From a virus (Duplodnaviria; Caudoviricetes): a DNA stretch of 64,000 bases. Below are positions 23,670-42,707 of this stretch, piece by piece. The notes under the pieces were generated by a model, which saw only the letters and a list, made by a program, of their open reading frames with translations, did not search any database and was not told the origin of the DNA. The number at the start of each line of letters is the position of its first letter. Positions within the stretch are counted from its first letter, which is position 1. Location: positions 96,001 to 160,000 of the IMG/VR virus record IMGVR_UViG_3300043447_000100; one strand, 5' to 3'. The position numbers and the translations under genes are program-made.

Positions 23670-23751
23670 TCTTCTATGTCACGTATGAATCCTTCATACT
23701 ACTACCCTTAGACTTAGTTTATCAGACACTTAAAATTTGAAAGGAAATAAA

Positions 23752-24765: not shown

Positions 24766-24775
24766 TAAACTGTCC

Positions 24776-24810
24776 ATAATAAGATAACGCCTCGAGCGTT
24801 ATCTTATTAT
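24776..24810 (+). terminator. Perfect 15-bp inverted repeat after gp32 (terminator or stabiliser)
   Basis: ATAATAAGATAACGC-CTCGA-GCGTTATCTTATTAT. Confidence 0.7.
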
Positions 24811-24824
24811 ATTAGGAGCAACAA

Positions 24825-25609: not shown

Positions 25610-25617
25610 GGAATAAC

Positions 25618-26697: not shown

Positions 26698-26720
26698 ATA
26701 ACAGCGGAGGAAAAATTTCA

Positions 26721-26987
26721 ATGGCATTAGATATCGTTACTCAAGTATGGGATATTGTAAAAGAAACAATACACCCAACAGACCGCGAAACAGCGGCCGA
26801 GCACATCGTGGGAATGTTGATCGACAATGACTACTCACCGGCAGAAATCAAAAGTGCTTTCAGAGGCGACTCTGATTTTGCAACTGCCTTAAAGTATTAC
26901 AACGATCAAGAATCTGAATACGAGGAAGACTACGAAGAATACGAAGAAGAACAACTTGATTTCGACGACGAAGAAGATTGGGATTAA
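26721..26987 (+). CDS. Hypothetical protein with an acidic tail
   Basis: 88-aa ORF with GGAGG RBS. Confidence 0.75.
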   Translation: MALDIVTQVWDIVKETIHPTDRETAAEHIVGMLIDNDYSPAEIKSAFRGDSDFATALKYYNDQESEYEEDYEEYEEEQLDFDDEEDWD

Positions 26988-27443
26988 ATGAACTGGTACA
27001 CGCAGGTAACTAACGATCTAGCAGTACTGCCTGATTTTATTGAACACTATACAAACGAACTAGCACAAGCAAAACTTGAAGTTAGCATCAAAGGTAGTGT
27101 CGAGAAAAATCTAGCAGGGTTGCCTGGTATCACCGAGTATCGCTTCAATCAACTACAAGAGATCGAAGCGGTCCTCAACTTTCTCAACATCAAGCTACGC
27201 AAGATTCGTTCGACTACATTCAAGAAATTCTTTGAAGGGTATGCTCGTGCATTAACAAGCCGCGATGCTGAAAAGTATGTTGAAGGTGAGCCCGACGTAA
27301 TCGACATGGAAACACTTATCAACGAGGTCGCACTCTTACGCAATCGCTGGTTAGGCATTATGAAGGGCTTAGAAGCTAAGCAATGGCAACTAGGTCACAT
27401 CGTTCGTTTGCGTACAGCGGGCATGGAAGACGCAACAATCTAA
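26988..27443 (+). CDS. uvsY: Recombination mediator UvsY
   Basis: Helical 151 aa; LTSRDAEKYV.GE, KGLEAK.WQL and LRTAG. Located next to uvsX. Confidence 0.8.
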   Translation: MNWYTQVTNDLAVLPDFIEHYTNELAQAKLEVSIKGSVEKNLAGLPGITEYRFNQLQEIEAVLNFLNIKLRKIRSTTFKKFFEGYARALTSRDAEKYVEGEPDVIDMETLINEVALLRNRWLGIMKGLEAKQWQLGHIVRLRTAGMEDATI

Positions 27444-28378
27444 TGACGCTAAAGCCGGTAAATCTTAACGTGCGCTCAGTCACGATAGAGGACATCGAGA
27501 ATCACAAGTTGATTTCTGATGAAGCACTTGCTCGTGACCTAAACAACGTCAAACGATTCAACGCCGACGAGAACACAAACTCGTTCGCAGGCAACCCTTT
27601 CTTGTATCACTATCAGTTCAAGAACTTACTGCGCTGTAAACGAGCAGACGGCAAAAATATCTACGACACATGGTCAGACCCCGTACAACGAGACAAACTG
27701 TTCGAAGATACACTCAAGCGCAACAGAGGCGGAGCAACAGCCGCTGGCAATGTGTTTGAGTGCTATCGTATCAACAAGGGCAGTGTTGTAATGTTCAAAT
27801 CAACAACAGCAAAATACTTGTACAAAAAGTACGGCGCTACCAGAGTGCTTGATCCGACAGCAGGTTGGGGCGGTCGTATGATCGGCGCATGGGCACTAGG
27901 CATCGACTACACGGGCATCGATACAAACATTGAAATGAAACCTGCGTATGATGCTATGATTCAACATCTACTACAACACGACGATACATCACTGTTTACA
28001 TTCGATAGGGTATCAGAGCTACAAATGCTGTGGCAAAGTTGCCTCGATATCGACTTCTCTAAACTTGATTATGACTTTGTGCTAACAAGCCCACCGTATG
28101 TCAACTTAGAAATCTACGAACACATGACTGAGTGGTCAAGCGACGAATCGTTTTATCTAGGCTTCTTCATACCACTGTTCGACAAGTGTAGAGCACACAT
28201 CAAAGCAGGCGGCCACATTGCCTTCAACATATCACCTAAGATGTATGAGGATGCGCTAAAGTTCGGCCTACCTCCATGCGATATTGAAGAAGACCTCAAG
28301 CAACAGATGGGTCAAAAACACGTGGCACTAAAGACCGGCAAGAAAAAGCAAGATAAAGTATACATTTGGCGCTGTTGA
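27443..28378 (+). CDS. Amino-DNA methyltransferase (N4-C / N6-A type)
   Basis: VLDPTAGWGGR (SAM binding) and LTSPPY (catalytic). The true start is ATG 27443, overlapping the uvsY stop. Confidence 0.85.
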   Translation: MTLKPVNLNVRSVTIEDIENHKLISDEALARDLNNVKRFNADENTNSFAGNPFLYHYQFKNLLRCKRADGKNIYDTWSDPVQRDKLFEDTLKRNRGGATAAGNVFECYRINKGSVVMFKSTTAKYLYKKYGATRVLDPTAGWGGRMIGAWALGIDYTGIDTNIEMKPAYDAMIQHLLQHDDTSLFTFDRVSELQMLWQSCLDIDFSKLDYDFVLTSPPYVNLEIYEHMTEWSSDESFYLGFFIPLFDKCRAHIKAGGHIAFNISPKMYEDALKFGLPPCDIEEDLKQQMGQKHVALKTGKKKQDKVYIWRC

Positions 28379-28403
28379 CAATAAATGGTAGACCTGTTAT
28401 ACT
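28375..28403 (+). promoter_or_regulatory. Sigma70-type early promoter
   Basis: TTGACA-17 bp-TATACT with extended -10; ATG 7 nt downstream. Confidence 0.8.
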
Positions 28404-28410
28404 ACCATCT

Positions 28411-29058
28411 ATGACTACGAAACACACTCTACTCACAGTCCTAGCCGCCGCCAATCGTGCGGCCACCATCAACGGCCAGTACGTCAAGTTCACAGTACCG
28501 GCACTTCGTGACCCTGACGGCCAACTCGTTCGGCCTGAGAAACTGCCCAACCGCGTAGTCATTGCCGAGTTGCTCAAGACACCTGACGCTATTACTACAG
28601 AAGACTACGAGCAAGCAGAGAAAATTAGAACTTTCTTACAAGGACTAACACTAAAGTTCTTACAACGAGGTTCTCTCAGTCAGTTCGACAGCAAGCTACT
28701 GGCCCTCTCTAGCCTAGACGAAGTAAGCACTGACTCACTTGCTATCCTTGCGTATTCGCCCTACTCGCTGATGCAATATGAGGAGCAAGAGTATGCTAAT
28801 ACTAAACGCTTACAAGCAGTCAAGAAATATCTGGCCGCACCTAATACTAAAGTATCAGTAACCGCGGAAGTAATACGAACTACTTACAGCCAGCAGTATA
28901 ACTGCTACTTCATTGAGGCAGTCACCGCTTGTAATCATAAAGTATTCTTTTCTTACAAAGAGTCTCTTGTACTACAAAAGCATTACACTATTCAGGGCAA
29001 GGTCAAGTCTAACCGTGACGACTTCGTAACGCAACTCAACTATGTCAAATTGTTGTAA
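28411..29058 (+). CDS. Hypothetical protein with a possible C-terminal OB-fold
   Basis: Leaderless ATG 28411; beta-rich C-terminus (IQGKVK...TQLNYVK). Confidence 0.6.
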   Translation: MTTKHTLLTVLAAANRAATINGQYVKFTVPALRDPDGQLVRPEKLPNRVVIAELLKTPDAITTEDYEQAEKIRTFLQGLTLKFLQRGSLSQFDSKLLALSSLDEVSTDSLAILAYSPYSLMQYEEQEYANTKRLQAVKKYLAAPNTKVSVTAEVIRTTYSQQYNCYFIEAVTACNHKVFFSYKESLVLQKHYTIQGKVKSNRDDFVTQLNYVKLL

Positions 29059-29107
29059 AAATACAACACCCACCCCACTTGACAATAAATGGCAATCCTG
29101 CTACAAT
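29051..29107 (+). promoter_or_regulatory. Palindrome TGTTGTA-AAAA-TACAACA plus a strong sigma70 promoter
   Basis: Inverted repeat at 29051-29068; TTGACA (29079)-17 bp-TACAAT with TG extension. Confidence 0.8.
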
Positions 29108-29140
29108 ACTTGTATTGAAACTGATAACGAAAGGCACTCT

Positions 29141-30229
29141 ATGAATCAAGTTCGCATCGCCCGTGGTGAGTATCACTCTAAGCCCGTGACTGGCACCTTC
29201 ACTCTCGTCAAGCCATATCAAGCCGGCAAACGCGGCGGCTTCGTGACTGTGGTCAACGACGGCACCCTGGGCAATGAACCTGTTGCTGGCAAACCTGCCC
29301 GAATCCTGGTAAAAACCTCGGCCGACTTTGAGTATCTGTCGGGCGCAGGTATTCAAGTTCCCGCCGGCATCGTAGCCTTCACCCCTGCCCCACTCGCCGC
29401 TCCCGTAGCAGAACCTGTGTCTACTGAGACTGACGAGGAAATCATGAACCGCATCGGCGAACGCTTCGGCATTCAAACTGAAATGACACGTGCGGCAATC
29501 GCTGGCCAAATTCGTGCCATGATTATCTCAGGCGCACCTGGTGTCGGTAAGTCTCACGGTGTCGTATCTGAACTCGAAAAGTTCTCGCTGTTCGATCAAC
29601 TCGCAGGTAACAAAATCAAGTATGAAGTTGTCAAAGGTGCTACTACCGCTCTTGGTTTGTACGCTACCTTGTACAAGCACAGCGACCACAATCATGTGTT
29701 GGTGTTCGATGACTGCGACAGCGTTTTCGCTGACGAACTCTCGCTCAACATTCTGAAGGCCGCCCTTGATTCCGGCAAGACCCGCAAGATTTTCTGGAAC
29801 TCTGATTCAGCCTTGCTCCGTCGTGAAGGCATCCCCGATTCGTTCTCGTTCAATGGTACTGTTATCTTCATTACCAACTTGAACTTTGAAGCAACTCGTA
29901 GTAAGAAACTCCAAGACCACTTGGAAGCCCTTCAGTCTCGTTGTCACTTCTTGGACTTGACCATTCATACAGCACGTGAAAAGATGCTCCGTATTCGTCA
30001 AGTTCACCGTGATGTGACTAACGATCCTAACGCACCTGCTGGCGGATTGTTCTCCGAGTATGATTTGCCTGCTGGTATGGACGCTGAAATTTTGGACTTC
30101 ATCTGGGAAAATCACCAGCACTTCCGCGAAATTAGTTTGCGCATGGCACTCAAAGTTGCTGACTTGTACAAAATCAATCCAGAAAAATGGAAGTTGCTTG
30201 CTAAGAGCACTTGTATGAAGCCTCACTAA
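29141..30229 (+). CDS. AAA+ type ATPase (likely early gene)
   Basis: GAPGVGKS, LVFDDCD, IFITN and ALQSRC. ATG 29141 follows AAGG. Confidence 0.85.
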   Translation: MNQVRIARGEYHSKPVTGTFTLVKPYQAGKRGGFVTVVNDGTLGNEPVAGKPARILVKTSADFEYLSGAGIQVPAGIVAFTPAPLAAPVAEPVSTETDEEIMNRIGERFGIQTEMTRAAIAGQIRAMIISGAPGVGKSHGVVSELEKFSLFDQLAGNKIKYEVVKGATTALGLYATLYKHSDHNHVLVFDDCDSVFADELSLNILKAALDSGKTRKIFWNSDSALLRREGIPDSFSFNGTVIFITNLNFEATRSKKLQDHLEALQSRCHFLDLTIHTAREKMLRIRQVHRDVTNDPNAPAGGLFSEYDLPAGMDAEILDFIWENHQHFREISLRMALKVADLYKINPEKWKLLAKSTCMKPH

Positions 30230-30256
30230 TCTGCTCTGCCTTTCGTGAGCATTTAC

Positions 30257-30279
30257 AGCCACCTTCGGGTGGCTTTTTT
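30257..30279 (+). terminator. Rho-independent terminator with cUUCGg tetraloop
   Basis: AGCCACC-TTCG-GGTGGCT-TTTTT. Confidence 0.92.
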
Positions 30280-30292
30280 ATTGCCAAAACAT

Positions 30293-30321
30293 TTGACACT
30301 TTGCTACTCTTTGTGTAAAAT
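30293..30321 (+). promoter_or_regulatory. Sigma70-type promoter
   Basis: CCAAAACAT-TTGACA-17 bp-TAAAAT. Confidence 0.7.
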
Positions 30322-30376
30322 AGGCTGATACATACCGCTATTGTAACCGGTAAATATTGGCCTAGGAGAAACAAAC

Positions 30377-30652
30377 ATGAGTAAGAAACCAACATTCACA
30401 ACATCAGTATTTGACTTTGATGACTTAGAGAGTCCAGAAACTGAATGGCGAGGCATGCCAGAATTCAATCAACCAGACAACGGAGCATTCCGACAAATCA
30501 TTGTGTCATTCGATGACCAAGCTGGTGTAGATGCGTTCGAGAAACTAATCGGCCAACCGCTAACAGAAAAAACTAAATCGCTATGGTTCCCACAACGTGA
30601 GCGGAACAACGTAGTAGACCTATTCTACGTAAGTGAGGACAAGGATGAGTAA
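30377..30652 (+). CDS. Small acidic protein coupled to the glycosyltransferase
   Basis: EW.GMPEF.Q ... TKSLWFP; AGGAG RBS; overlaps the next gene. Confidence 0.75.
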   Translation: MSKKPTFTTSVFDFDDLESPETEWRGMPEFNQPDNGAFRQIIVSFDDQAGVDAFEKLIGQPLTEKTKSLWFPQRERNNVVDLFYVSEDKDE

Positions 30653-31595
30653 TCCTCAGTTCCCGTTATACATTCCAACAAAAGGTCGTGCCGATAGTCG
30701 TCTAACAAGTAAAGCGTTTGACTTTATGCGGATGCCTCACTATCTTGTAGTTGAGCCACAAGAATGTGAAATGTATGAAACAGAAATTAGAAAGTGGGAA
30801 AAGGAAACTGGCTGTAAGTCATACGCCACTGTCTTAGAGATGGACTTACGCTACAAAGAAACATACGAACTACTTGACGACTTGGGATTAACAAAGTCAA
30901 CAGGCCCAGGGCCAGCACGTAACTTCGCATGGGACCACTCAATCAAAAACGGCTTTGAGTGGCACTGGGTTCAAGATGACAACATCAGAAACTTCTTGAG
31001 ACTAAATAATAACTTGAAGATCAAACTAGCAGACGGTACTGGCTTCCGTGTTATGGAAGACTTCGTACTCAGATATGAGAACGTGCTAATGGCTGGTCCT
31101 AACTATCGCTCATTCGCTTCACAAAATGCTTCGATGCCACCGTATGTTAAGGGCACTCGCATCTACTCTTGTAATCTAATCAAGAACGATAGTAAGTGGG
31201 TAACAGGTGAAAGAGCAGGTCAACCTATGCGCTGGCGCGGTCGTTACAATGAGGATACGATTCTATCACTTGATATGCTAACACAGGGCTTTCAGACGAT
31301 TCAGTTCAACGCCTTCCTACAAGACAAGCTACGCACTCAAGTACTAGGCGGCGGCAACTCAGGCGAGTTCTACTTCAAAGAAGGCACAGCACCTAAGAGT
31401 CGTATGCTCAAAGAAGCGTATCCACAATACACAGAACTTGTGTGGAAGTTTCAACGTGAGCATCATCACGTTGACTACACGCCGTTCAAAGATACGCCGC
31501 TGATTCGCAAGAAGGATTTTGTATTGCCAGTAGGCATCAACAACTATGGCATGGAGTTGAAAACAATTTCGCCAGATACACCAGGAAGAGTATAA
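30645..31595 (+). CDS. GT-A glycosyltransferase, TET-associated (TAGT) / GREB1-like
   Basis: PLYIPTKGR, LVVEPQE, GPARN..WDHS, WVQDDNI (DxD-like), RIYSC.LI, RYNED..LSL and GGN. Confidence 0.75.
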   Translation: MSNPQFPLYIPTKGRADSRLTSKAFDFMRMPHYLVVEPQECEMYETEIRKWEKETGCKSYATVLEMDLRYKETYELLDDLGLTKSTGPGPARNFAWDHSIKNGFEWHWVQDDNIRNFLRLNNNLKIKLADGTGFRVMEDFVLRYENVLMAGPNYRSFASQNASMPPYVKGTRIYSCNLIKNDSKWVTGERAGQPMRWRGRYNEDTILSLDMLTQGFQTIQFNAFLQDKLRTQVLGGGNSGEFYFKEGTAPKSRMLKEAYPQYTELVWKFQREHHHVDYTPFKDTPLIRKKDFVLPVGINNYGMELKTISPDTPGRV

Positions 31596-33055
31596 TGACA
31601 GGAACAGTAGTAATGACGATCAAAGATGAAGTCAATGTAAAGTTTGACGGCATCGACCCACAAGATCGTAGAGCGTTAGTAAAGATGTTTTCGTATGAGG
31701 TGCCTGGCGCCCGTTACTTACCATCAGTCAAGCTAGGTCGTTGGGACGGCAAAGTGTCGTACTTCAATTTGAGCGGCACAAGTTACATCAACCTACTTGA
31801 TAGAATCATTCCCTTCTTAGATAAGCAGGGCTATGATATCGAGTTGAACGATATCAGAAACTACTCTACGAATTTTACATTCAATGAGATTGATGAGAAC
31901 AGTTTTAGCGACCGCTTATGGCCAGCAGGTCACCCAGCCGCGGGCCAACCTATTATTCTACGTGATTATCAAGTAGAGATTGTCAATAACTTCTTAAAGA
32001 ACCCACAATGCTTACAAGAAGTAGCAACGGGCGCTGGTAAGACATTGATGACCGCGGCACTATCCCTATCAGTTGAGCAAATGGGCCGTTCAATCGTAGT
32101 TGTGCCTAACAAAGACTTGGTCAAACAAACAGAAGCAGACTATAAGAACTTAGGCTTAGATGTAGGCGTATACTTCGGTGATAGAAAAGAATGGGGCAAG
32201 ACTCATACAATCTGTACATGGCAGTCACTCAACGTCTTGCTAAAGAACACAAAGTCAGGCGAAGCAGAAGTAACAATCGGCGAGTTTGTTGAAGATGTAG
32301 TATGCTTAATCATTGACGAAGCGCATCAAGCAAAAGCAGACGCACTTAAAGAACTGCTAACAGGCGTAATGAGTCACATTCCTATTCGCTGGGGTTTGAC
32401 CGGCACGATTCCTAAAGATCAGTATGCCGCACAAGCACTCTACTGTACAATCGGTCCGGTGATTCACCGACTAAGCGCCGCTACACTTCAAGATCAGGGC
32501 GTCTTATCTCAATGTCACGTAAACGTAATTCAACTACAAGACGAGGTAGAATACGCAAACTATCAAAGTGAGTTGAAGTACTTGTTAGAGAACAAGCAAC
32601 GCATGGACAAGATGGGCGAAATGATTCACGCTATCTCACTTGAGGGCAACACGCTTGTGTTAGTTGATAGAATCGCGGCAGGTCTTGCTCTTGTAGAACG
32701 ATTGCCAGGCGCAGTATTCGTCAACGGCGATACAAAATCAGACAAACGAAAGGCAGAGTACGATGAAATTGCGACGAGCGACAAGAAGATTATTGTGGCT
32801 ACATATGGTGTGGCTGCGGTTGGTATTAACATCCCTCGGATTTTTAATCTCGTGCTTATTGAGCCTGGGAAGAGTTTCGTACGGGTTATCCAATCGATTG
32901 GTCGTGGCATCCGCAAAGCTGAGGACAAAGATTTCGTCCAAATCTGGGACATAACTTCCTCTTGTCGCTTCGCTAAACGACACCTAACAGCACGTAAGGC
33001 TTTCTATAAGGAAGCAAATTATCCATTTACTGTTGAGAAAATTTCTTATAAGTGA
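31595..33055 (+). CDS. uvsW: Superfamily 2 DNA helicase UvsW
   Basis: LRDYQ, ATGAGKT, IIDEAH, GLTGT and QSIGRGIR. Confidence 0.93.
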   Translation: MTGTVVMTIKDEVNVKFDGIDPQDRRALVKMFSYEVPGARYLPSVKLGRWDGKVSYFNLSGTSYINLLDRIIPFLDKQGYDIELNDIRNYSTNFTFNEIDENSFSDRLWPAGHPAAGQPIILRDYQVEIVNNFLKNPQCLQEVATGAGKTLMTAALSLSVEQMGRSIVVVPNKDLVKQTEADYKNLGLDVGVYFGDRKEWGKTHTICTWQSLNVLLKNTKSGEAEVTIGEFVEDVVCLIIDEAHQAKADALKELLTGVMSHIPIRWGLTGTIPKDQYAAQALYCTIGPVIHRLSAATLQDQGVLSQCHVNVIQLQDEVEYANYQSELKYLLENKQRMDKMGEMIHAISLEGNTLVLVDRIAAGLALVERLPGAVFVNGDTKSDKRKAEYDEIATSDKKIIVATYGVAAVGINIPRIFNLVLIEPGKSFVRVIQSIGRGIRKAEDKDFVQIWDITSSCRFAKRHLTARKAFYKEANYPFTVEKISYK

Positions 33056-33061
33056 TATAAT
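33033..33061 (+). promoter_or_regulatory. Sigma70-type promoter, leaderless
   Basis: TTGAGA-17 bp-TATAAT; ATG 6 nt downstream. Confidence 0.6.
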
Positions 33062-33067
33062 GTTAAT

Positions 33068-33568
33068 ATGAATATTTTACAACTAACAGACGAGAAGTAC
33101 GACCTTACGAATCTACCCGAAGAGGTAGAAGACCTGCGCTTTGCTATCTTAGATAATAGCAACCCGCAGGCAGTTGATTACTTCTACATACCGCTTATCT
33201 TCTTAGAGTCATTCAACTCGCCGGCATTAGTGCTGAAGATTGGCGATAGGACAGTCAAGATGCCACTCGACTGGCAAATCTTGATTGGTGAACCTGACTT
33301 AGGTGACCTAGAAACAATCCCACTAACTTCTATTACAGATCGCGGCTTCAAAGCATTTCAGTTCAACCCTATCTCAGGCTTCAAACCTTCATTCTTAGAC
33401 ATTGAAATCATAGATGTGTATCACGATGTTACTTGGTACGCACCTAGACTAAAGAACGGTCAGTTCTTGTGTGTGCCCATCGACGACGGTCATAAACCTC
33501 GTTGTGTTTACTTTGTCAAAGAGATTAGCAAGAACGCAGAGATTGTAGACTTCTCACAGGTATTCTAA
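33068..33568 (+). CDS. Hypothetical beta-rich protein (possible Hint-like fold)
   Basis: 166 aa, located between uvsW and the clamp loader subunit. Confidence 0.65.
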   Translation: MNILQLTDEKYDLTNLPEEVEDLRFAILDNSNPQAVDYFYIPLIFLESFNSPALVLKIGDRTVKMPLDWQILIGEPDLGDLETIPLTSITDRGFKAFQFNPISGFKPSFLDIEIIDVYHDVTWYAPRLKNGQFLCVPIDDGHKPRCVYFVKEISKNAEIVDFSQVF

Positions 33569-34179
33569 TGGCAACTAAAAAACAGGCAACTAAGAAAACA
33601 GCTATTCCCTCAGACGAAAAGTTTGAAAATGTAGACTTTGACCTATTCAAAGCGATTGAAGCGATTGATAAGAAAGACTACGGCTGGTTTGACACACTTA
33701 CAGAAGACCAGCAAAAGAAGTTTGTGCCGTATATGATGCTACACTGGATCAGCGCAGTCAAAGCTACGGGTATGCTAGGTGCGTATTATGTAATGAGCAC
33801 TGATGCTAATGCTAACAAGTATATGTTCAACGAGCGAGTACAGCAACATCCTAAACTACAATGGTTGATGTTGTGCGCCGCATCGCCAGGCATGGGCAAG
33901 CAGTTTCATCAGTGGATCCCACACTTGAAAGCAAAGTTCGGCACACTTGAAGAACAGGCAACTAAGAAAGATGCTAGGGAATACTTTGAGAAAGTTTATG
34001 CGACTGCTAGTAAAGACGACATTGACTTGATTACAGGTCACTATGTAGGCGAACAAAATCATCAGTACAGATTATCAAAACTATTCCCTGAAATGAAGAT
34101 TGATGATGTACGAGCATTAGCCGCAGTTGTAACATCAGAAGACATTGACAAATATGAAGAAGAAGCCGGCTACAGATAA
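33568..34179 (+). CDS. Clamp loader small subunit (gp62-like)
   Basis: F.PYM...W.S, N..., HPKLQW and QFHQWI pattern resembles T4-type gp62. Confidence 0.55.
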   Translation: MATKKQATKKTAIPSDEKFENVDFDLFKAIEAIDKKDYGWFDTLTEDQQKKFVPYMMLHWISAVKATGMLGAYYVMSTDANANKYMFNERVQQHPKLQWLMLCAASPGMGKQFHQWIPHLKAKFGTLEEQATKKDAREYFEKVYATASKDDIDLITGHYVGEQNHQYRLSKLFPEMKIDDVRALAAVVTSEDIDKYEEEAGYR

Positions 34180-34849
34180 GCCATACAGTTGTGAGCATTG
34201 CGGCGCAGGCTTCGTTCGTGAGGCTTCGCTGTTCACACACTTATGTGAAAAGAAGCGTAGATGGGATGAACGAGACATGCCATCATCACGCTTGGGCTAT
34301 ATCGCATGGCTTGAGTTTTACAAGCGCAACTATCCTAGTAAAAAAGACACAGACTTCAAAGCATTTGCTAAGAGCACATACTACACAGGCTTTATCAAGT
34401 TCGGGCTTTACTGTCATTCAATCAACGCAATCAACCCTACTGCTTTCATGGGCTGGTTACTGTCTAACAAAGTAGCGATTGATAACTGGACATCAGACGC
34501 ACAGTATGAGAAATACTTAGTTGAGTATCTACGCTTAGAAGATCATGGTGATGCTATCAAGCGAAGTATTGAAACCCTCTCAGAGATTGCCGAAGAGCAA
34601 GGTATGTTAGTTAGCGATGTACTACGAGTAGGCAACGCAAACAAGATTTGTCATCTTATCACAGTAGGCAAGATTAGTCCGTGGATTATTTACAACTGTG
34701 ATAGCGGCATTGAATTCATGGGACACATAATGCGTTCAGGACAAGTTCAACACATTTACAAGTACATCGACCCTGAAATTTGGCAAATCAAATTCAAACG
34801 ACAAAGTAGTGATACTGAAATAGTAAAACAGGCATTGAAACACTTATGA
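34154..34849 (+). CDS. Hypothetical protein with an N-terminal C2H2/C2HC zinc finger
   Basis: YSCEHCGAGF..E.SL..HLCE; GKISPW. Confidence 0.7.
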   Translation: MKKKPATDKPYSCEHCGAGFVREASLFTHLCEKKRRWDERDMPSSRLGYIAWLEFYKRNYPSKKDTDFKAFAKSTYYTGFIKFGLYCHSINAINPTAFMGWLLSNKVAIDNWTSDAQYEKYLVEYLRLEDHGDAIKRSIETLSEIAEEQGMLVSDVLRVGNANKICHLITVGKISPWIIYNCDSGIEFMGHIMRSGQVQHIYKYIDPEIWQIKFKRQSSDTEIVKQALKHL

Positions 34850-35442
34850 CACAATTTCGTAGCGACATTGATATTGACTGCGCTGATCGTGAGCAAGTAA
34901 TGTCACGTATAAACGCAACACAGGCTTCAGTTAGAGAAAACTGGAAAGTTCGTCGTCATGCTTCAGGCGCATACATCACGCCTATTCCTTATGACCCAGT
35001 ACATGATGTTGCCGCCCTTGATTACAAGACAGCAGAAGAGCGCGGCTATGTGAAACTTGACTTGTTGAACGTACACGTTTATGGTCACGTTAGGGATGAA
35101 GCACACTTAGTTGAATTGATGCGAGAGCCTAACTGGAAGATGTTGCGTGATCCTGATATTGTCAAACGATTAGTTCAGATTCATAGCCAGTATGACATTA
35201 TGAGACAGATGCCTGAACCTATCAACAGCATACCTAGATTAGCAATGTTCTTGGCTGTGATTCGCCCTAGTAAGCGACATTTGATTGGTAAGACTTGGGC
35301 AGAAGTTGCCGAGACGATTTGGGATAAGACTGAAGATGGGTATGTGTTTAAGAAAAGTCACGCTATTGCGTATGCTACCCTGACTGTTGTAAATATGAAT
35401 CTGTATGAAGAAAATCCTACGGCATTCGTTTTACCAGAGTAA
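34846..35442 (+). CDS. Miniature DNA polymerase III alpha (DnaE, family C) catalytic fragment
   Basis: SDIDID, RHASG, G.VKLDLL, A.IRP and FKKSHAIAYA occur in DnaE order within 198 aa. Confidence 0.8.
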   Translation: MTQFRSDIDIDCADREQVMSRINATQASVRENWKVRRHASGAYITPIPYDPVHDVAALDYKTAEERGYVKLDLLNVHVYGHVRDEAHLVELMREPNWKMLRDPDIVKRLVQIHSQYDIMRQMPEPINSIPRLAMFLAVIRPSKRHLIGKTWAEVAETIWDKTEDGYVFKKSHAIAYATLTVVNMNLYEENPTAFVLPE

Positions 35443-35794
35443 TTGATCTTCGCTTGATTCGCTTCTTGGTTAGATCATTCATACTGGTAGCGGGTCCGTG
35501 AATAATCTCTAAGCCTTTGTTGGTAAACGTTCGCAAGAATGGCTTGAATGGCATCCAATCTTCACGTAAGAAGATATGAATTGGTATTTGATGATTGCTA
35601 CCCCACCACCATTCGTCGGCCAATTCAAGGAATAATTCCTTCATTTCTTTATGTACTATGCTACCATAGTCATAGAATGTAGTAATACTGTCATCCCTGT
35701 TTTGAACAATGCCCACATATTCATTGCCACCGTAGCTGCATACGGTTATGAATGGGTGCTCTTGGGACAGTTTTTCAAAGAATTCTCTGCTCAT
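35417..35794 (-). CDS. Hypothetical protein
   Basis: 125-aa ORF (EYVGIVQN, WWWGSN..IPI); minus-strand CTAAATA box at 35823-35829. Confidence 0.75.
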   Translation of the reverse strand: MSREFFEKLSQEHPFITVCSYGGNEYVGIVQNRDDSITTFYDYGSIVHKEMKELFLELADEWWWGSNHQIPIHIFLREDWMPFKPFLRTFTNKGLEIIHGPATSMNDLTKKRIKRRSITLVKRMP

Positions 35795-35879
35795 TAGTTA
35801 CGATGGGTTTGTTCCATTAGTTTATTTAGTCAGGTCATAGTTTTGGATATTTTTACGATAAATACAAAAAGGATAAAAA

Positions 35880-36680
35880 ATGTCGGCCCAAACTAAAGTC
35901 TATTTCTACGTTCAACGTCAACCAGTGGTTCTCATTGAATCTGGAGCCGCATCTAGGAGGTATGAAACCGTGTACGCAAAAGAACTAACAATCACCAAGG
36001 GCACAAACAATACGCTTGAGTTTGCGTTCGTTAATCAGGACCAAAAGCATGTAAATATCGAAAACAACGATATCACATTCCGCATCCTAGATAGTCAAGC
36101 CCAGCAGATTCTATTCCAGAAGACTCTAACGCCAATCTATCCAGTTACCGGTATCACTTCGGTTCGACTAACTGCGGAGGATATTGAGGCAATCGAAACT
36201 CAGCGTTGCTACTATACCTTAGAAGAGTCAATGGGATATGCTGTTTATGTTGACAGCAAAGGCGGCACTCGTGGTGTGTTAAACGTAGTCGAAGGTACGA
36301 TTCCTGAGTTCACACCAAGTACAGTTGTTACACTTGAACCACATACGCTACCGACACCACCAGTCGCACCATCAGCATCAGTAGCATACAATTCAAGCGT
36401 TATTCAGACCAAAGCAGTTGCTAAGAATACGATTCAAGTCAATCTTTCAGGCTTCACAGGCAACATAATTATTCAAGGTTCAACTACAGATTCATTCACT
36501 TCATCGTATGATATCACGACTACAACCTTAACTAACAGTTCAGCAACTTATGGCTTCGAAGTCCAAGGCTTTCATCCATACTTGCGAGTTAGAGTCGTAA
36601 ACTTTCCAACAGTAACTACCAATCCAGATTCAACAGTCACACTATCACATGGTGAAGTGACTTCTATTTTGGCAAGATAA
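35880..36680 (+). CDS. Putative virion structural protein (beta-sandwich)
   Basis: Late box at 35857, AAGGA RBS, T/V-rich beta pattern. Confidence 0.55.
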   Translation: MSAQTKVYFYVQRQPVVLIESGAASRRYETVYAKELTITKGTNNTLEFAFVNQDQKHVNIENNDITFRILDSQAQQILFQKTLTPIYPVTGITSVRLTAEDIEAIETQRCYYTLEESMGYAVYVDSKGGTRGVLNVVEGTIPEFTPSTVVTLEPHTLPTPPVAPSASVAYNSSVIQTKAVAKNTIQVNLSGFTGNIIIQGSTTDSFTSSYDITTTTLTNSSATYGFEVQGFHPYLRVRVVNFPTVTTNPDSTVTLSHGEVTSILAR

Positions 36681-36694
36681 GTTACCAATATCTA

Positions 36695-36723
36695 TTGAAA
36701 TGTCAACTTAGATACTGTATAAT
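36695..36723 (+). promoter_or_regulatory. Sigma70-type promoter for a leaderless primase mRNA
   Basis: TTGAAA-17 bp-TATAAT; ATG 6 nt downstream. Confidence 0.65.
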
Positions 36724-36729
36724 AGCAGT

Positions 36730-37695
36730 ATGCTTGATATTTTAACACTAATTCCTGGTAGAAAGACATTCGCTCGTGGCGGCTGGCACACGTTCAATGC
36801 TATTTGCTGTACACATCGCGGCGAAACACCAGACAAGCGCAGACGCGGTGGTGTAATCTTAACGCCTGGCGGCTGGAGCTATCACTGCTTCAACTGTCAT
36901 TTCAAATGCGGCGTTACTGAAGGTCAACACTACTCAGCAAAAACAAAAGAACTATTACGCTGGTGCGGACTTGATTCGATGGAGATCGAGCGCCTTAGTT
37001 TTGAATCGTTCGCATCTAAACCTGAGAACTTAATCAATCAAGTTAACAAGCCCATCGTAATCACATTCGACCGCAAGCATCTACCTGATAATAGCGAAGC
37101 ACTCAACCCAGAAGACCCGCGACATGCCGAGCACGTTGAGTACATCAAGTCACGAGGCTTGCCGCTCAAAAGTTATCCTTTCCATGTAACGCCCGACGCT
37201 AAGTTTGAGCGAGACAAGCATCGTCTAATCATACCTTATTTCTATCATGGAGAGATTGTAGGATATACTAGCAGATATTACGACAACAGAGTACCTAAGT
37301 ATGTGTCCGAGCAACAAACAGGCTACATATTCAACGTAGACGCTCAAAAAGAAAGCAGACAATCATGTATACTAGTAGAAGGGCAATTTGATGCTATCAG
37401 CATCGGCGGTTGCGCTTATCTAGGCAGTACGATCACAGACGATCAAGCAAGACTATTAACAAAAATTAGAAAACAAATCATCGTTGTGCCAGATAGAGAC
37501 AAGGCAGGCATGAGTGTTTGTGACAGAGCATTAGAATTAGGTTATCGAGTTAGTATCCCTGAATGGAGCCCGGAAGTTAAAGATGTCAATGACGCTGTTA
37601 AGCGATATGGTAAATTCCCTACCTTGCTTAGTATACTGCAGTCAGCAACATCTAGTCGAATCACAACAGAAATGAACAAGAGGAAATTTAAATGA
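36730..37695 (+). CDS. DNA primase (gp61-like)
   Basis: Zn-binding YHCFNC; TOPRIM LVEGQFDA, PDRDKAG and KDVND. Confidence 0.92.
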   Translation: MLDILTLIPGRKTFARGGWHTFNAICCTHRGETPDKRRRGGVILTPGGWSYHCFNCHFKCGVTEGQHYSAKTKELLRWCGLDSMEIERLSFESFASKPENLINQVNKPIVITFDRKHLPDNSEALNPEDPRHAEHVEYIKSRGLPLKSYPFHVTPDAKFERDKHRLIIPYFYHGEIVGYTSRYYDNRVPKYVSEQQTGYIFNVDAQKESRQSCILVEGQFDAISIGGCAYLGSTITDDQARLLTKIRKQIIVVPDRDKAGMSVCDRALELGYRVSIPEWSPEVKDVNDAVKRYGKFPTLLSILQSATSSRITTEMNKRKFK

Positions 37696-39134
37696 CACAA
37701 CCACAAACTTACGGCCCAGAAATACAAGAACTATTTGTCAGAATGATGCTGACAGACCCAACACTCTACACTCGGGTATCAAACATCTTAGACAGCGACA
37801 ACTTTGACAAGCGCATCAAGCCCTCAGTCAAGTTCATCAAAGAATACACAGACAAATACTCAAATGTACCAGATGCCGCTCAAATTAAAGCAACAACAGG
37901 TCTAGAAGTTGATAAAATTCAAGACGGTCTGCGTGACAGCGATGTGAACTGGTTCTTAGACGAGTTCGAGAAGTTTACAAAGCGACAAGCACTCGAACGA
38001 GCAATCTTAGAAAGTGCTAAGCTACTTGAAGACGGCAACTACGGCCCGGTAGAGAAGCTAATCAAAGACGCAGTTCAAATCTCGCTACAGAAAGACATGG
38101 GCACAGACTACTTTGCTGACCCTGCCGCTCGTATCAACAAATACTTCAACTCAGGCGGTCAAGTATCAACAGGCTGGCAACAACTCGACCGTCTACTCTA
38201 CGGCGGCTTCTCACGAGGCGAACTCAATATCTTCGCAGGCGGCTCGGGCTCCGGCAAGTCGCTGGTCATGATGAACATGGCGCTCAACTGGTTACAGCAA
38301 GGTATGTCAGGCGTGTATGTGTCGCTAGAACTTTCAGAAGAACTAACCTGTTTGCGTAGTGATGCGATGTTGACTGCTATGAGCACAAAAGACATTCGTA
38401 AAGACATATCACAAACCGAGCTAAAAGTCAAGATGGCGTCTAAGAGCGCAGGTCAGTATCGTGTCAAAGCAATGCCTGCTCAGTCAAACGTAAACGACAT
38501 TCGTGCGTATCTAAAAGAAGTTCAGATTCAGACAGGTATCAAAGTTGATTTCGTCATGGTCGACTACCTTGACCTAGTTATGCCTGTGTCAGTCAAAGTC
38601 AACCCTAACGATCAGTTCATCAAAGACAAGTATGTGTCAGAAGAACTACGCAATCTAGCAAAAGAGCTAGGAGTCTTGCTAGTCACAGCATCACAGTTGA
38701 ATCGTTCGGCGGTTGAAGAGATTGAGTTTGATCACTCGCACATCGCCGGCGGTATCTCAAAGATCAACACCGCTGACAACGTGTTCGGCATCTTTACGAG
38801 CCGAGCAATGCGAGAGCGCGGCGTGTATCAGATTCAGTGTATGAAGAGTCGTAGTTCTACTGGCGTCGGTCAGAAGATTGACTTGACCTACAACATTGAG
38901 ACAATGCGCATCACAGATGAGGGCGAGTCTCAAGGCGAGACAAACGTGGCAGCCTCATTCCTAAGCAAGATCAAGGGCGCCGGAGTGCCTGCCTCTCAAG
39001 TCACGACCTTCAACCCATCAATCGTACCGTCAAACGGCGAGGGCCAACCCGAGGAAGATCATAAGAAAGTCAAGGCTGACATTCAAAGCAACAAGCTGGC
39101 CAGCATGTTAAATCAACTAAAGAAGCCTGGCTGA
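37692..39134 (+). CDS. Replicative DnaB-like helicase (gp41-like)
   Basis: GGSGSGKS, SLELSE, VDYLD, TASQLNR and KSR. Confidence 0.95.
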   Translation: MTQPQTYGPEIQELFVRMMLTDPTLYTRVSNILDSDNFDKRIKPSVKFIKEYTDKYSNVPDAAQIKATTGLEVDKIQDGLRDSDVNWFLDEFEKFTKRQALERAILESAKLLEDGNYGPVEKLIKDAVQISLQKDMGTDYFADPAARINKYFNSGGQVSTGWQQLDRLLYGGFSRGELNIFAGGSGSGKSLVMMNMALNWLQQGMSGVYVSLELSEELTCLRSDAMLTAMSTKDIRKDISQTELKVKMASKSAGQYRVKAMPAQSNVNDIRAYLKEVQIQTGIKVDFVMVDYLDLVMPVSVKVNPNDQFIKDKYVSEELRNLAKELGVLLVTASQLNRSAVEEIEFDHSHIAGGISKINTADNVFGIFTSRAMRERGVYQIQCMKSRSSTGVGQKIDLTYNIETMRITDEGESQGETNVAASFLSKIKGAGVPASQVTTFNPSIVPSNGEGQPEEDHKKVKADIQSNKLASMLNQLKKPG

Positions 39135-39158
39135 TAAGTCCAAGATAAATACAATATT

Positions 39159-39416
39159 ATGAAGCGTAACACCCGCAGCCTATTAGAAGAACTTGAAGAT
39201 ATTAGCAAGAACCGTGATACTAAGCATATCATCGAAAGTCGTGCTAATAACGTCATATCTTCAGCGATTCACCTACTTGAGGTAATCGAGCGTAATTTTA
39301 CTCCTGAGCAGGCAGCTGTCCTAGAGAAAAAATTACTAGTAGCCATCAAGAACAGAGATCAAAATAAGTTTGTCAACGGGTTAAAGCGCACTCAGAATCA
39401 AAATCCTGAGGCATAA
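39159..39416 (+). CDS. Hypothetical late protein
   Basis: 85-aa ORF, 7 nt after GATAAATA. Confidence 0.7.
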   Translation: MKRNTRSLLEELEDISKNRDTKHIIESRANNVISSAIHLLEVIERNFTPEQAAVLEKKLLVAIKNRDQNKFVNGLKRTQNQNPEA

Positions 39417-39499
39417 CAGCCGACTTTTTTTAGAAAAAGATAAATAACATTAGGAACATAGTGTTCCAACCATTATAGATCATTTAAGGAGAAATCAAA

Positions 39500-39841
39500 A
39501 TGGCAGGCTTTACAAAAACAAATGGCACATACGGCCCAATCGGTTCAGTTATCAACCCATTCGGTCCAGGCGTTACTGTATTCAGTGGTGACCTAGGCGC
39601 TGACCCATCAGCACAAATTGGCCCAGGCCAAGCTGTTGAGAAGGTTATCGAGTACTTCACACAACTAGGTACAGTTGCTATGTATCAAGTTAACACTACC
39701 GGCGCTTACAAAGTTGTTCTATACCCAGCAGGTTACCCAGTAACTGCCGCTGCAGCTCAGACAGCTATTCGTGCTTTCGGTACAGTTAACGGTTACGACC
39801 TAAGTGGCGCTACTGTTACTTCTGGCGACCTAATCGCCTAA
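39500..39841 (+). CDS. Small, probably abundant virion protein (decoration-like)
   Basis: Own late box, strong TAAGGAG RBS, own terminator and strongly biased codons. Confidence 0.6.
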   Translation: MAGFTKTNGTYGPIGSVINPFGPGVTVFSGDLGADPSAQIGPGQAVEKVIEYFTQLGTVAMYQVNTTGAYKVVLYPAGYPVTAAAAQTAIRAFGTVNGYDLSGATVTSGDLIA

Positions 39842-39859
39842 TCAGTTTCTAACTGAACG

Positions 39860-39888
39860 AAAAAGCCCAGATTTTTCTGGGCTTTTTT
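39860..39888 (+). terminator. Rho-independent terminator (potentially bidirectional)
   Basis: AAAAAGCCCAGA-TTTT-TCTGGGCTTTTTT. Confidence 0.9.
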
Positions 39889-39906
39889 ATTGTCTCTAAA
39901 TATCGT

Positions 39907-40338
39907 GTGCGAATCATTTGTAAAACACTTTTCGATATTACTCAGACTAATGTAAACACTCGTAGAACAACGCCTACAGGCAATATCAATCACGAGCGTC
40001 AACGTGGTCAGCAAAGCAATTTCGAGACTCTTTTGCAAATCATTTCCATGAGAGCCCAGCCTGAAAATATTCAGCCTCCAGAAAAGACTATGGAGAGTTT
40101 AGACGGCAAGTGGGGCAACAAGTATACGAATGAGACTAAAGTTCCTGTGTGGACATTCTCATTTGACGTAGTTTTCGGCGGAGTATTTGATGACGGTGTT
40201 TCAAAACTAGGATATCTATATGCGGACTGCTCTAATGTCCCTATGATAGCTAATTTAGAAGAATGGGCAGCCGCAGGAAGCTCATTGAACTCATCAGTAG
40301 AACTACGAAACGTATATTTTGAGGTATCACATGGTTAA
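39907..40338 (+). CDS. Hypothetical protein
   Basis: GTG start 4 nt after CTAAATA; TLFDIT.T and Q..NFETLLQ.IS.RAQP. Confidence 0.7.
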   Translation: MRIICKTLFDITQTNVNTRRTTPTGNINHERQRGQQSNFETLLQIISMRAQPENIQPPEKTMESLDGKWGNKYTNETKVPVWTFSFDVVFGGVFDDGVSKLGYLYADCSNVPMIANLEEWAAAGSSLNSSVELRNVYFEVSHG

Positions 40339-40810
40339 CAAGTCAATTTCAGAAGTCTATTCAGAGCTAAGCAACATCGTAGGCAAAACAATGTCTAAGA
40401 TTGCTCATGGGGTGCTTATAAAAACTGAACATGGCGTAGTAGTCTATAACAAATACGTCATAGTCAAGACCGCTGATGGCGTTGATCTTTATACCAGAAC
40501 TGGCCAAGAGGAAATTATGTCCTTCAATTCAGCAAAAACCGCCCTAATCTGGTCGATCCTAGACAACAGCCTTCAAGTCTCAGCCGCAAGACGAGTCCGA
40601 GAACTAGACACTCTGCTATATAGCGCCAACTTTGACGTTGAGGTCCACAAAACCTACAAAAAGAAGACAAAAACCGAAGATTATCTAATCTACTACAGCA
40701 AATACCAGCATGCCAGGGTCAGACAAAAACAGTTTCTGTTAGAATTAGATAAATACACTATATTAGCACAACGGTGCCAATCCAAAGGAACAAAACATGA
40801 AATTAAATGA
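40331..40810 (+). CDS. Hypothetical protein
   Basis: ATG 40331 after GAGG RBS. Confidence 0.7.
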   Translation: MVNKSISEVYSELSNIVGKTMSKIAHGVLIKTEHGVVVYNKYVIVKTADGVDLYTRTGQEEIMSFNSAKTALIWSILDNSLQVSAARRVRELDTLLYSANFDVEVHKTYKKKTKTEDYLIYYSKYQHARVRQKQFLLELDKYTILAQRCQSKGTKHEIK

Positions 40811-41528
40811 AATGAATCTAGGCAAAAAAGAAACAGCTAAACGTGCTCTAAAGGAGAACTTTGAGTTGAACCTAAACTTTGACAAGTTAGGCATGAAGCA
40901 AACTAAGAATATGCTAACTCGTGTTCGTGGTCTAATCAAAGAATCACGTACTAGCAGTTCATATCACGTTCGTCATCAAAACGCTGGCTATATGAAGCTA
41001 GTAATGATGGAACAAGCCCTAGCAAGTCACTATGGTGATCTACGTGTTCAACAGCAAATCATGATGGAGAACGAAGAAGTTCAGAAGTCACAAGTTATCT
41101 TAGCTGCACAAGACATGGTAGACACAATTCAGAAGATGATTGAAGACATTTCTAAGATGAAGGTCGAAGAAGTTAACGCAGTTGTTAACGGCATCAACAA
41201 TGAATTCGGTACATCTGAAGGCGAGACATTTAATAGTGCGGTAACTGAAGCTCTTGGTGCTCTAGAACAAGCTCTTTCACAAGCTAAGCAAGGCGTATCT
41301 AGTGCTATGGGTGCTCTAACTGGTGAAGGCGGCGGTGACTTCGGTGGCGATGCTGGCGGCGACTTAGGTGGCGCTGATCTAGGAGCAGGCGATGAAGGAA
41401 TGGGCGACATGGGTGCTGATCTCGGCGGCGATGATATGGGCGGCGATATGGGTGGTGAACTACCTGAAATGCCAGCAGGTGAAGAAGAAGCCGAAGACGT
41501 AGGCAATGCTGGTAGAGAGATGCGCTAA
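40797..41528 (+). CDS. Putative prohead core / scaffold-like protein
   Basis: MKLNE N-terminus, coiled coil, acidic G/D/M-rich tail; late box at 40748. Confidence 0.55.
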   Translation: MKLNEMNLGKKETAKRALKENFELNLNFDKLGMKQTKNMLTRVRGLIKESRTSSSYHVRHQNAGYMKLVMMEQALASHYGDLRVQQQIMMENEEVQKSQVILAAQDMVDTIQKMIEDISKMKVEEVNAVVNGINNEFGTSEGETFNSAVTEALGALEQALSQAKQGVSSAMGALTGEGGGDFGGDAGGDLGGADLGAGDEGMGDMGADLGGDDMGGDMGGELPEMPAGEEEAEDVGNAGREMR

Positions 41529-41887
41529 TGAAATTATTTGAGCTAGACGCTGGCTTTGATAATGATGATCCGCTACGAGTAGCCACTGCGGCTGCTCTAG
41601 CACGAGTAAAATCAGATATTGAAGACAGTGCTTACAAAGGCGAGTTCAAAGTCAAGAGTCTATTGAAGATTCTACATGACTATGACGTTGATATCGATCA
41701 TGCTCAATTAATCGAGTTATCAAAGGAAGAGCCTTGGAGCAATCTAATCGCTAAAATCAAAGGCGATCACGTTATTTTCAAAGGTGATCCTGATGAAAGT
41801 TCAGACACAATGAAGCCAGACGAAACAACAGATACACTCGAAAAAATGGCAGGTAGAGCCGGTAAGAAACAAGAAAAAGGACTGTAA
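41528..41887 (+). CDS. Putative internal head protein (MKLFE)
   Basis: 119 aa, translationally coupled to the previous gene. Confidence 0.6.
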   Translation: MKLFELDAGFDNDDPLRVATAAALARVKSDIEDSAYKGEFKVKSLLKILHDYDVDIDHAQLIELSKEEPWSNLIAKIKGDHVIFKGDPDESSDTMKPDETTDTLEKMAGRAGKKQEKGL

Positions 41888-41912
41888 AGTCCTTTTTTGT
41901 TATCCAAAACAT

Positions 41913-41941
41913 TTGCGTTCTGTAGTACTAAGTGCTATAAT
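41913..41941 (+). promoter_or_regulatory. Sigma70-type promoter, leaderless
   Basis: CCAAAACAT-TTGCGT-17 bp-TATAAT with TG extension; ATG 5 nt downstream. Confidence 0.65.
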
Positions 41942-41946
41942 ACACA

Positions 41947-42663
41947 ATGCCCTATATTCCTAAATTCGATTACAAACCATTATCTCGTGCCAATGTTGAC
42001 GGTAAACGCTTATACGCAACACCAGACGGCAAAAAACTACCCTCAGTAACAACAATCTTAGACGCTACTAAGCCTGAAGAAGAAAAACGTGCTCTTATGG
42101 AGTGGCGTAAGGCAGTAGGTGAAGCTAAAGCTCAAGCTATCACAACAGAAGCGGCAAATCGCGGTACTCGTATGCACTCGTACTTAGAAAAGTACATCAA
42201 AGAAGGCACAATGCCGCCGAAAGCATCAAACCCTTTTACCTGGGCAAGTCATGCTATGGCCCACGAAGTAGTAAATCAAGGCTTAGTTAAAGCAGACGAG
42301 TTCTGGGGCATTGAAGTGCCTCTTTACTTCCCTGGCGTGTATGCTGGTACGACAGACTGCGTAGGTATTCATCAAGGCCGCGAAGCAATCATGGACTTTA
42401 AGCAGTCAAACAAAGTCAAAAAGCGTGAGAACATCTCGGGCTACTTCTTACAGTTATGTGCTTATGCTGAGGCACACAATGAACTTTACGGCACTAACAT
42501 CAACACCGGCGTGATCTTGATGTGTGTCAAACCTGAGATGGACGCTAATCAAAACGTCAAGTCTCAACCGCAATATCTTGAGTTTGTATTAGAAGGTAGT
42601 GAGTTCGAACACTACAGAAACTTGTGGTGGCAACGCTTAGAGCAATATTACAGCAAGGTTTAG
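41947..42663 (+). CDS. PD-(D/E)XK exonuclease
   Basis: LPSVTTIL, RGTRMH, E..L, AGTTD, IMDFKQS and QL.AYA. Confidence 0.88.
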   Translation: MPYIPKFDYKPLSRANVDGKRLYATPDGKKLPSVTTILDATKPEEEKRALMEWRKAVGEAKAQAITTEAANRGTRMHSYLEKYIKEGTMPPKASNPFTWASHAMAHEVVNQGLVKADEFWGIEVPLYFPGVYAGTTDCVGIHQGREAIMDFKQSNKVKKRENISGYFLQLCAYAEAHNELYGTNINTGVILMCVKPEMDANQNVKSQPQYLEFVLEGSEFEHYRNLWWQRLEQYYSKV

Positions 42664-42707
42664 GAGCATAGCCATGATAAATAGTAGTATCAGGACATAT
42701 TACTACC

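Follow-up and report, generated by a model that had tools for sequence, protein, structure and literature searches.

The viral record IMGVR_UViG_3300043447_000100 (IMG/VR; Duplodnaviria, Caudoviricetes) spans 183,666 bp and is estimated to be ~52% complete; the window analyzed here is the stretch of 64,000 nucleotides at positions 96,001-160,000 of this record. An intact open reading frame (ORF) with an ATG start at positions 34846-35442 of the window, on the + strand, encodes a protein of 198 amino acids (aa) that very probably represents the C-terminal, metal- and template-binding half (hereinafter C-half) of a split, minimal alpha subunit of DNA polymerase III (Pol III) characteristic of the T4-like jumbo phages assigned to group 2.2. 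Such subunits have been described on the basis of sequence by Iyer et al. (2021, Viruses 13:63, PMC7824862; sections 3.4.1 and 3.5), according to whom the jumbo phages with the minimal version possess no other Pol III domains, the minimal subunit accompanies a family B DNA polymerase (PolB), and the mini Pol III can be proposed as a model of the ancestral Pol III core. This kind of protein is already present in the literature (since 2021) and in the PHROGs database, and what we describe is a new member from an uncultured phage and no new principle.

Judging from profile searches, the likeness of the 198-aa protein to DnaE is beyond chance. The PHROGs family phrog_11778 (197 positions, labelled "DNA polymerase") covers the protein end to end (aa 4-190 on profile positions 5-194, E 6.5e-57), and the DnaE-type phrog_405 matches its last 45 residues (profile positions 773-818, E 7.6e-10), with a second, collinear matching stretch at profile positions 578-637. 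The NCBIfam DnaE models match aa 152-194 (model positions ~730-770) with scores below the cut-off; the searches of the protein yielded no Pfam domain, no PF07733 match and no NCBIfam match above the cut-off.

The residue-level correspondence was established with a multiple sequence alignment (MSA) of the C-half family, residues 385-800 of E. coli DnaE and an unsplit 559-aa phage DnaE-like protein (discussed below). An initial annotation made from the DNA letters alone had described a 198-aa DnaE core with five motifs in the DnaE order, and all of these are recovered by the MSA, in that order (all on the + strand). The first palm strand carries D7-I-D9-I-D11 (34864-34878), with SDIDIDC aligned to PDFDVDF of E. 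coli, so that D7 and D9 correspond to D401 and D403. The R37-H38-A-S-G41 motif (34954-34968) aligns with K510-HAGG, the KHAGG motif that follows the thumb in E. coli DnaE, and K70-L71-D72 (35053-35061), which contains the third catalytic aspartate, aligns with K553-F-D555 in the MSA as well as in an hhalign comparison with E. coli DnaE (E 2.8e-4 for the D72/D555 block). In the part corresponding to the fingers, I139-R140-P141-S-K143 (35260-35274) aligns in the MSA with the FRPGP motif of E. coli, and F168-KKSHAIAYA-177 (35347-35376), a fingers helix, corresponds to F754-NKSHSAAYA, as indicated by the phrog_405 and NCBIfam DnaE matches. An hhalign comparison of the C-half family with the single unsplit 559-aa protein produced collinear alignments that are statistically weak.

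The same alignment delineates what has been deleted. The second and third aspartates, initially placed about 63 aa apart compared with about 150 in full-size DnaE, are separated by 63 aa in the C-half and by 152 aa in E. coli DnaE, and the gap is shorter because the thumb (about E. coli residues 424-508) is missing between the DxD strand and the RHASG motif. The deletions also include fingers segments equivalent to about E. coli 641-708 and 716-736, and the protein terminates at about E. coli residue 790. The PHP, clamp-binding and OB domains and the GS loop are all lacking from the 198-aa protein; hence the initial inventory of absent parts (thumb, most of the fingers, PHP, GRGS motif, clamp-binding and OB domains) holds, on the evidence of the MSA and of the failure to detect PHP or PF07733 in the protein.

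An AlphaFold model of the monomer has a mean predicted local distance difference test (pLDDT) score of 65. The helical fingers part (aa 80-195) is predicted with a pLDDT of ~90, and the palm strands (aa 1-76) fall below 50, presumably because the protein holds only half a domain. When this model was compared with 48,161 representative chains of the PDB using VIA-align, the top 7 matches were all family C polymerases (DnaE or PolC), with Z-scores of 8.3-5.9: Mycobacterium tuberculosis DnaE1 (5lew; Z 8.3, root-mean-square deviation 2.9, 121 residues aligned), PolC (3f2b; Z 8.1), E. coli Pol III alpha (5fku; Z 8.0), Taq Pol III alpha (2hpi; Z 7.3) and three further family C chains (Z 6.2-5.9). 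The next match, to an unrelated protein, has a Z-score of 3.5. The structural case, which depends on a model, draws on this clean drop to Z 3.5 taken together with the sequence motifs; the Pol-beta-like palm called for in the initial annotation is consistent with the seven family C matches, although the palm is the low-confidence part of the model.

The C-half gene appears, from its distribution and conservation, to be real, strongly conserved and not a decayed copy. In a protein database, 4,279 clusters are related to the C-half at E ≤ 1e-3; all 120 of these clusters that are listed consist of proteins of 187-216 aa, and, its own cluster aside, the C-half is at most 66% identical to other clusters among those listed. 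Matches were also found in 96 sequenced phages, with a query coverage of at least 80% in 95 of them; these 96 are all jumbo phages (284-490 kb) of the PA5oct, Atu_ph07/Phosso and 121Q/PBECO4/Rak2-like groups. Twelve positions are invariant across 34 homologues, namely D7, D9, D11, H38, G41, K70, D72, R140, P141, K143, H172 and Y176. The median pairwise ratio of nonsynonymous to synonymous substitution rates (dN/dS) is 0.12 over 315 pairs among 77 related genes, and 0.08 for the pairs with dS below 1, that is, the C-half is under purifying selection. No longer or fused versions of the C-half turned up when these were searched for, a negative result that carries little weight.

The initial annotation had further proposed a split polymerase whose GRGS- and PHP-containing half is encoded at another place in the genome. 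In the relatives, a GRGS half indeed exists, but it carries no PHP domain. In each of the phages PA5oct, 121Q, Atu_ph07 and Phosso, there is a protein of 169-180 aa (hereinafter N-half) with the terminal motifs WGVGRGSSV..Y and DF.EFLK, and in these GenBank genomes the N-half gene is located 31-224 kb from the C-half gene. The N-half family passes the Pfam threshold for PF07733 (38.3 bits vs a cut-off of 23.9), aligns to residues 350-392 of E. coli DnaE with its GRGS on G361-S364 (E 1.7e-5), and comprises at least 7,989 clusters of proteins of about 168 aa; an HMMER search of the PDB sequences with the N-half profile retrieved no DnaE, the underlying alignment probably being too narrow. In E. 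coli numbering, the N-half stops at about residue 392 and the C-half starts at about residue 395; the two halves thus tile collinearly on DnaE, and the split point, as mapped by these alignments, lies inside the Pol-beta-like palm. The N-half is present in all five complete relatives, each of which also encodes a PolB above the Pfam cut-off. Of 18 partial contigs of closer uncultured relatives, 8 contain the N-half, in each case 38-47 kb downstream of the C-half, and contig ends account for most of the cases in which it is missing.

A conserved ORF of 113-153 aa with the shared motif ..N.N.VAV.....V/MNA.GD.. invariably follows the N-half gene (L100:1898-2257; L008:1741-2082; L007:1761-2222; and L010:1081-1491 on the - strand). 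This arrangement extends across phages of Pseudomonas, Agrobacterium and Sinorhizobium and uncultured relatives, and the product of the ORF could be a further partner.

Based on the motif mapping and the tiling of the two halves, we propose a model of the split enzyme that we consider the best supported. The C-half would supply the second half of the Pol-beta-like palm, with the three metal-binding aspartates D7, D9 and D72, and its cut-down fingers (the IRPSK motif and the KSH..AY helix) would contact the template and the incoming nucleotide. The N-half (~170 aa, PF07733) would supply the first palm half, with the GRGS loop holding the triphosphate. Most likely, the two halves join non-covalently and complete one beta-sheet, giving rise to a ~370-aa nucleotidyltransferase without a PHP, thumb, clamp-binding or OB domain. 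Such a pair would work beside the family B replicase without replacing it; short-patch synthesis, as in repair, the filling of gaps or a strand-specific step, would be its most plausible task. The heterodimer, its catalytic activity and its biological role are what we infer from the above comparisons.

Several observations weigh against the assignment of this protein to a split polymerase. The Z-scores of about 8 fall in the range that the aligner flags as possibly unspecific; in a Foldseek search against the PDB, the E-values were not significant, with DnaE entries as the sole targets that have a template modelling (TM) score of ~0.4; and an HMMER profile of the C-half family retrieved no DnaE from the PDB sequences, the alignment probably being too narrow in this case, too. 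A literature search found no experimental paper on any family member, and a thumb-less, clamp-less enzyme may be a poor DNA polymerase whose real substrate is different. Furthermore, over the whole 183,666-bp record, a hidden Markov model (HMM) built from the N-halves of 4 phages yielded only noise and PolB had no match anywhere, and 52 kb of the record lie downstream of the C-half, yet without the N-half that is located 38-47 kb downstream in the relatives. Only noise was obtained across the record also with a GRGS-type regular expression and with tblastn searches using the N-halves of 3 closer relatives and the neighbour genes of the N-half, and there was no match to PHP, PF07733, PolA or full DnaE. 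The search of the rest of the genome that the initial annotation recommended thus turned up neither a GRGS-containing fragment nor a family B polymerase in this 184-kb, ~52%-complete record.

A comparison with the nearest complete relative (G001, 367 kb) offers an explanation of these absences. The replication module is colinear between the two genomes (119.7-138.7 kb of the record vs 337.7-314.5 kb of G001), and gene-by-gene mapping shows that the gene order is rearranged outside this module. In G001, the genes of PolB (~251 kb) and of the N-half (~281 kb) lie within one block, at 240-291 kb, which has no counterpart in the record. The N-half and PolB therefore probably went unseen here because this block lacks a counterpart in a record that is ~52% complete and rearranged; by analogy with the relatives, it appears most likely that the N-half and the main replicase lie in the unsampled half of this genome. 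A ~9-kb block (303-295 kb of G001) is located downstream of the replication module in G001 and upstream of it here (window positions 3079-12626 vs 23737-42708 for the module; 99.1-108.6 kb and 119.7-138.7 kb of the record), which reflects either a genome rearrangement or, possibly, a mis-joined contig.

As indicated by its neighbours, the C-half gene is part of a T4-type replication and recombination module, in agreement with the initial annotation. Upstream of it are the genes for a gp32-like single-stranded DNA-binding protein (23737-24765), UvsX (25618-26697), UvsY (26988-27443) and UvsW (31595-33055), and downstream are those for the primase (36730-37695), the DnaB helicase (37692-39134) and a PD-(D/E)XK exonuclease (41947-42663). 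A gene encoding a 395-aa protein of phrog_1250 (29042-30229; E 2.3e-82), with a weak P-loop (AAA_16) match, is located between the UvsY gene and the gene for a TET-associated glycosyltransferase (30633-31595; PF20691, E 1.1e-33). The latter directly precedes the UvsW gene and suggests that the DNA of this phage contains glycosylated hydroxymethyl-pyrimidines, which could be relevant to what the second polymerase must copy.

A promoter-like sequence, TTGAGA-17-TATAAT with an extended -10 element (33033-33061, + strand), is found 7 nucleotides before a 166-aa ORF; it has 11 of 12 consensus matches and is a consensus match only, the total count of such sites in the region being not above chance. 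A second promoter-like site with a near-consensus sequence, TTGAAA-17-TATAAT (36695-36723), occupies the same relative position, 7 nucleotides before the primase gene. The first site is followed by four tightly packed genes, a putative unit that consists of the 166-aa ORF, a 203-aa ORF, a Zn-finger ORF and the mini-DnaE gene, and the three neighbours of the C-half in this unit are all conserved across the loci of the C-half family. The 166-aa ORF (33068-33568, + strand; phrog_11279, E 1.4e-46) is 62-86% identical to its counterparts in related contigs and 31-46% identical to those of PA5oct, 121Q and Atu_ph07, so that the conservation of this ORF, which follows UvsW, exceeds that of the polymerase half. 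Searches of Pfam, NCBIfam and the PDB sequences gave no match to it, and a protein atlas contained unnamed viral clusters only.

The initial annotation had the C-half gene translationally coupled to a Zn-finger ORF and a gp62-like ORF. The coupling to the former is retained: the ORF for a C2H2 Zn-finger, all-alpha protein (34154-34849, + strand; 231 aa from the ATG at 34154; phrog_11058, E 4.5e-52) ends with a TGA (34847-34849) that overlaps the mini-DnaE start at 34846 as ATGA, and this ORF is present in 93 phage records compared with 96 that contain mini-DnaE. The gp62 label of the 203-aa ORF (33568-34179, + strand; present in 49 of 80 related loci) is not supported: it depends on a single BLASTP match to T4 gp62 with an E-value of 0.03 over 115 aa, the hhalign probability is 1.8%, and a search with the 203-aa family profile found no relevant PDB chain at E ≤ 1. 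In hhalign comparisons of the neighbours with T4 gp62, gp59, gp44, gp45, gp32, UvsY and others, all probabilities were below 5%. The AlphaFold2 model of the Zn-finger protein is all-alpha (pLDDT 92) and, beyond the finger, has no fold relative (best Z 4.7); structural comparison revealed no resemblance to any DnaE domain, and the protein atlas again gave unnamed viral clusters only. The C-terminus of this protein, which contains the motif RSGQVQHIYKYIDPE, was considered as a candidate for the missing GS loop and rejected in view of its unrelated all-alpha fold and the lack of a match to the N-half profile.

On the opposite side, the C-half gene abuts a convergent, conserved 125-aa ORF (35417-35794, - strand; phrog_11637, E 3.3e-32; in 77 of 80 related loci), which overlaps the mini-DnaE 3' end by 26 nucleotides; the same convergent overlap is seen in PA5oct, 121Q, Atu_ph07 and Phosso. 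The gene of a DEDD 3'-5' exonuclease (PF16473, Rv2179c-like, E 6e-33; e.g., L022:5432-5992) extends up to the C-half gene or overlaps its start in 25 of 68 related loci, and a homologue of this exonuclease is encoded within 6 kb of the C-half gene in 53 of 80. In the present record, the exonuclease homologue (31.6% identity, E 2e-29) is located 35 kb upstream of the C-half, at record positions 95329-95880, about 120-670 bp before the start of the window. This linkage would be in keeping with a polymerase whose proofreading is supplied in trans, but it is circumstantial. In G001, two ORFs of the Endonuclease VII/HNH type (L081:4634-5032 and 5579-6001) are inserted among the Zn-finger ORF, the exonuclease gene and the C-half gene, and what lies between these conserved genes varies widely among the relatives, including sugar-modifying enzymes, membrane proteins and others, so that the intergenic position around the C-half has the appearance of a hot spot where mobile or moron genes are gained.

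These neighbours invite alternative interpretations of the C-half. The 166-aa, 203-aa and Zn-finger proteins, joined in many relatives by the DEDD exonuclease, might be dedicated subunits of a second, self-contained multi-subunit polymerase that includes both palm halves. We consider this scenario rather unlikely; the earlier suggestion that the adjacent ORFs encode replacement subunits finds no backing in the best Z-score of 4.7 for the Zn-finger protein and in the lack of any match for the 166-aa and 203-aa families. Were it true, the system would be a naturally modular Pol III, with DNA grip and proofreading provided in trans, and would have a defined task next to PolB, for example, synthesis of one strand or repair of hypermodified DNA. 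Less probable still is that the C-half acts without the N-half, either as a non-catalytic factor that binds DNA or the replisome, or as a palm repurposed for a different nucleotidyl transfer with another partner such as the Zn-finger protein. The lack of an N-half in the 184-kb record, despite the room downstream, the ATGA coupling to the Zn-finger ORF, with co-occurrence in 93 of the 96 phage records, and the position of the gene behind two more conserved ORFs (166 aa and 203 aa) are all compatible with such a function. However, the three aspartates and the DnaE motifs for nucleotide and template contact are invariant, which argues for DnaE-type catalysis, the palm strands are modelled with low confidence in the monomer, and the N-half is encoded in every complete relative and stops where the C-half starts; the Zn-finger protein, for its part, has no GS-type loop, no match to the N-half profile and no likeness to a polymerase domain. 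The repurposed palm, an option of the initial annotation, is not favoured by any result obtained here.

It is very unlikely that the mini enzyme and the products of the adjacent ORFs serve as the principal replicase instead of a family B gp43, as the initial annotation implied. The failure to detect PolB, PolA or full DnaE in the 184-kb record and the location of the gene between those for UvsW and for the primase and helicase would fit this proposal, but a PolB is encoded in each of the five complete relatives, in the nearest one within the very block that this fragment lacks, and the comparisons made with the neighbours gave no convincing likeness to a clamp loader, a thumb or other polymerase parts. 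The chance that the gene is a decayed fragment of a full-length dnaE, or an assembly or frameshift artefact, is negligible. Although the protein amounts to only about one sixth of a normal DnaE and contains no recognized Pfam domain, the family-wide length (187-216 aa among the 120 clusters listed of 4,279, and at least 80% of the query covered in 95 of 96 genomes) and the median dN/dS of 0.12 refute decay; the homologues are not full-length proteins of which this copy would be a remnant, no longer relatives were found, and the gene has a clean start and stop and is flanked by unrelated conserved genes. Equally far-fetched is the idea that, as happens with the cyanobacterial split dnaE, a split intein joins the halves after translation; what this system shares with the cyanobacterial one is the origin of a polymerase from two distant genes. 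An intein would not fit, given that the N-half stops at ~392 and no more than 6 residues of the C-half precede the DxD strand (~401), and the split falls inside the palm, unlike the cyanobacterial split position.

The split Pol III alpha remains the interpretation that we prefer. The C-half family is among the smallest known relatives of bacterial replicases and is extremely abundant in metagenomes, where the C-half forms more than 4,000 clusters and the N-half about 8,000. It is split within a single catalytic domain and coexists with a eukaryote-like family B polymerase. If two ~20-kDa proteins do form an active polymerase, they would define the minimal catalytic unit of family C and reveal the task of the second polymerase of giant phages. 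The present window bears out the published picture in a new uncultured phage and adds to it conserved unnamed neighbours and the frequent linkage with an exonuclease.

Among the known systems, the closest are the C-pieces of PHROG 11778 (PA5oct gp264, 121Q gp16 and Atu_ph07 gp074), which share with this protein the length, the motifs and the start at the DxD strand, with 40-47% identity between the 198-aa protein and the C-pieces of the cultured phages. The gene order is shared as well, namely UvsW, three small conserved ORFs, mini-DnaE, a convergent ORF of ~120 aa, a structural gene, primase and DnaB. In contrast to those phages, the N-half and PolB are unseen in this record, whose gene order is rearranged relative to G001, and, unlike in many relatives, the DEDD exonuclease gene does not abut the C-half but is 35 kb away. 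Bacterial DnaE (E. coli 2HNH and 5FKU; M. tuberculosis DnaE1, 5LEW) and PolC (3F2B) have the homologous second palm half, the DxD...D triad and the FRPGP and NKSH..AY fingers motifs, whereas the C-half is about one sixth of their size, is devoid of the PHP, thumb, clamp-binding, HhH, OB and tau-binding parts, and has the GRGS part of the palm on another polypeptide.

A different reduction is represented by the unsplit, PHP-less 559-aa DnaE-like protein of contig G005 (L102:1504-3183, 54.9-56.6 kb), which contains RGS, DxD, KHCGG, KID and IRP in the same order. It differs from the split form in being one polypeptide that retains a thumb-length insert and full fingers (PF07733, E 1.3e-42; PF17657, E 1.4e-16). 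G005 encodes both split halves in addition to this protein, that is, two different reduced family C polymerases, and because the 559-aa protein coexists with the split form, it represents a separate lineage. In cyanobacteria, two distant genes likewise encode the family C polymerase DnaE, and their products are joined by protein trans-splicing to full length; by comparison, the system described here contains no intein sequences, its product is miniature, and its two halves presumably form a non-covalent pair.

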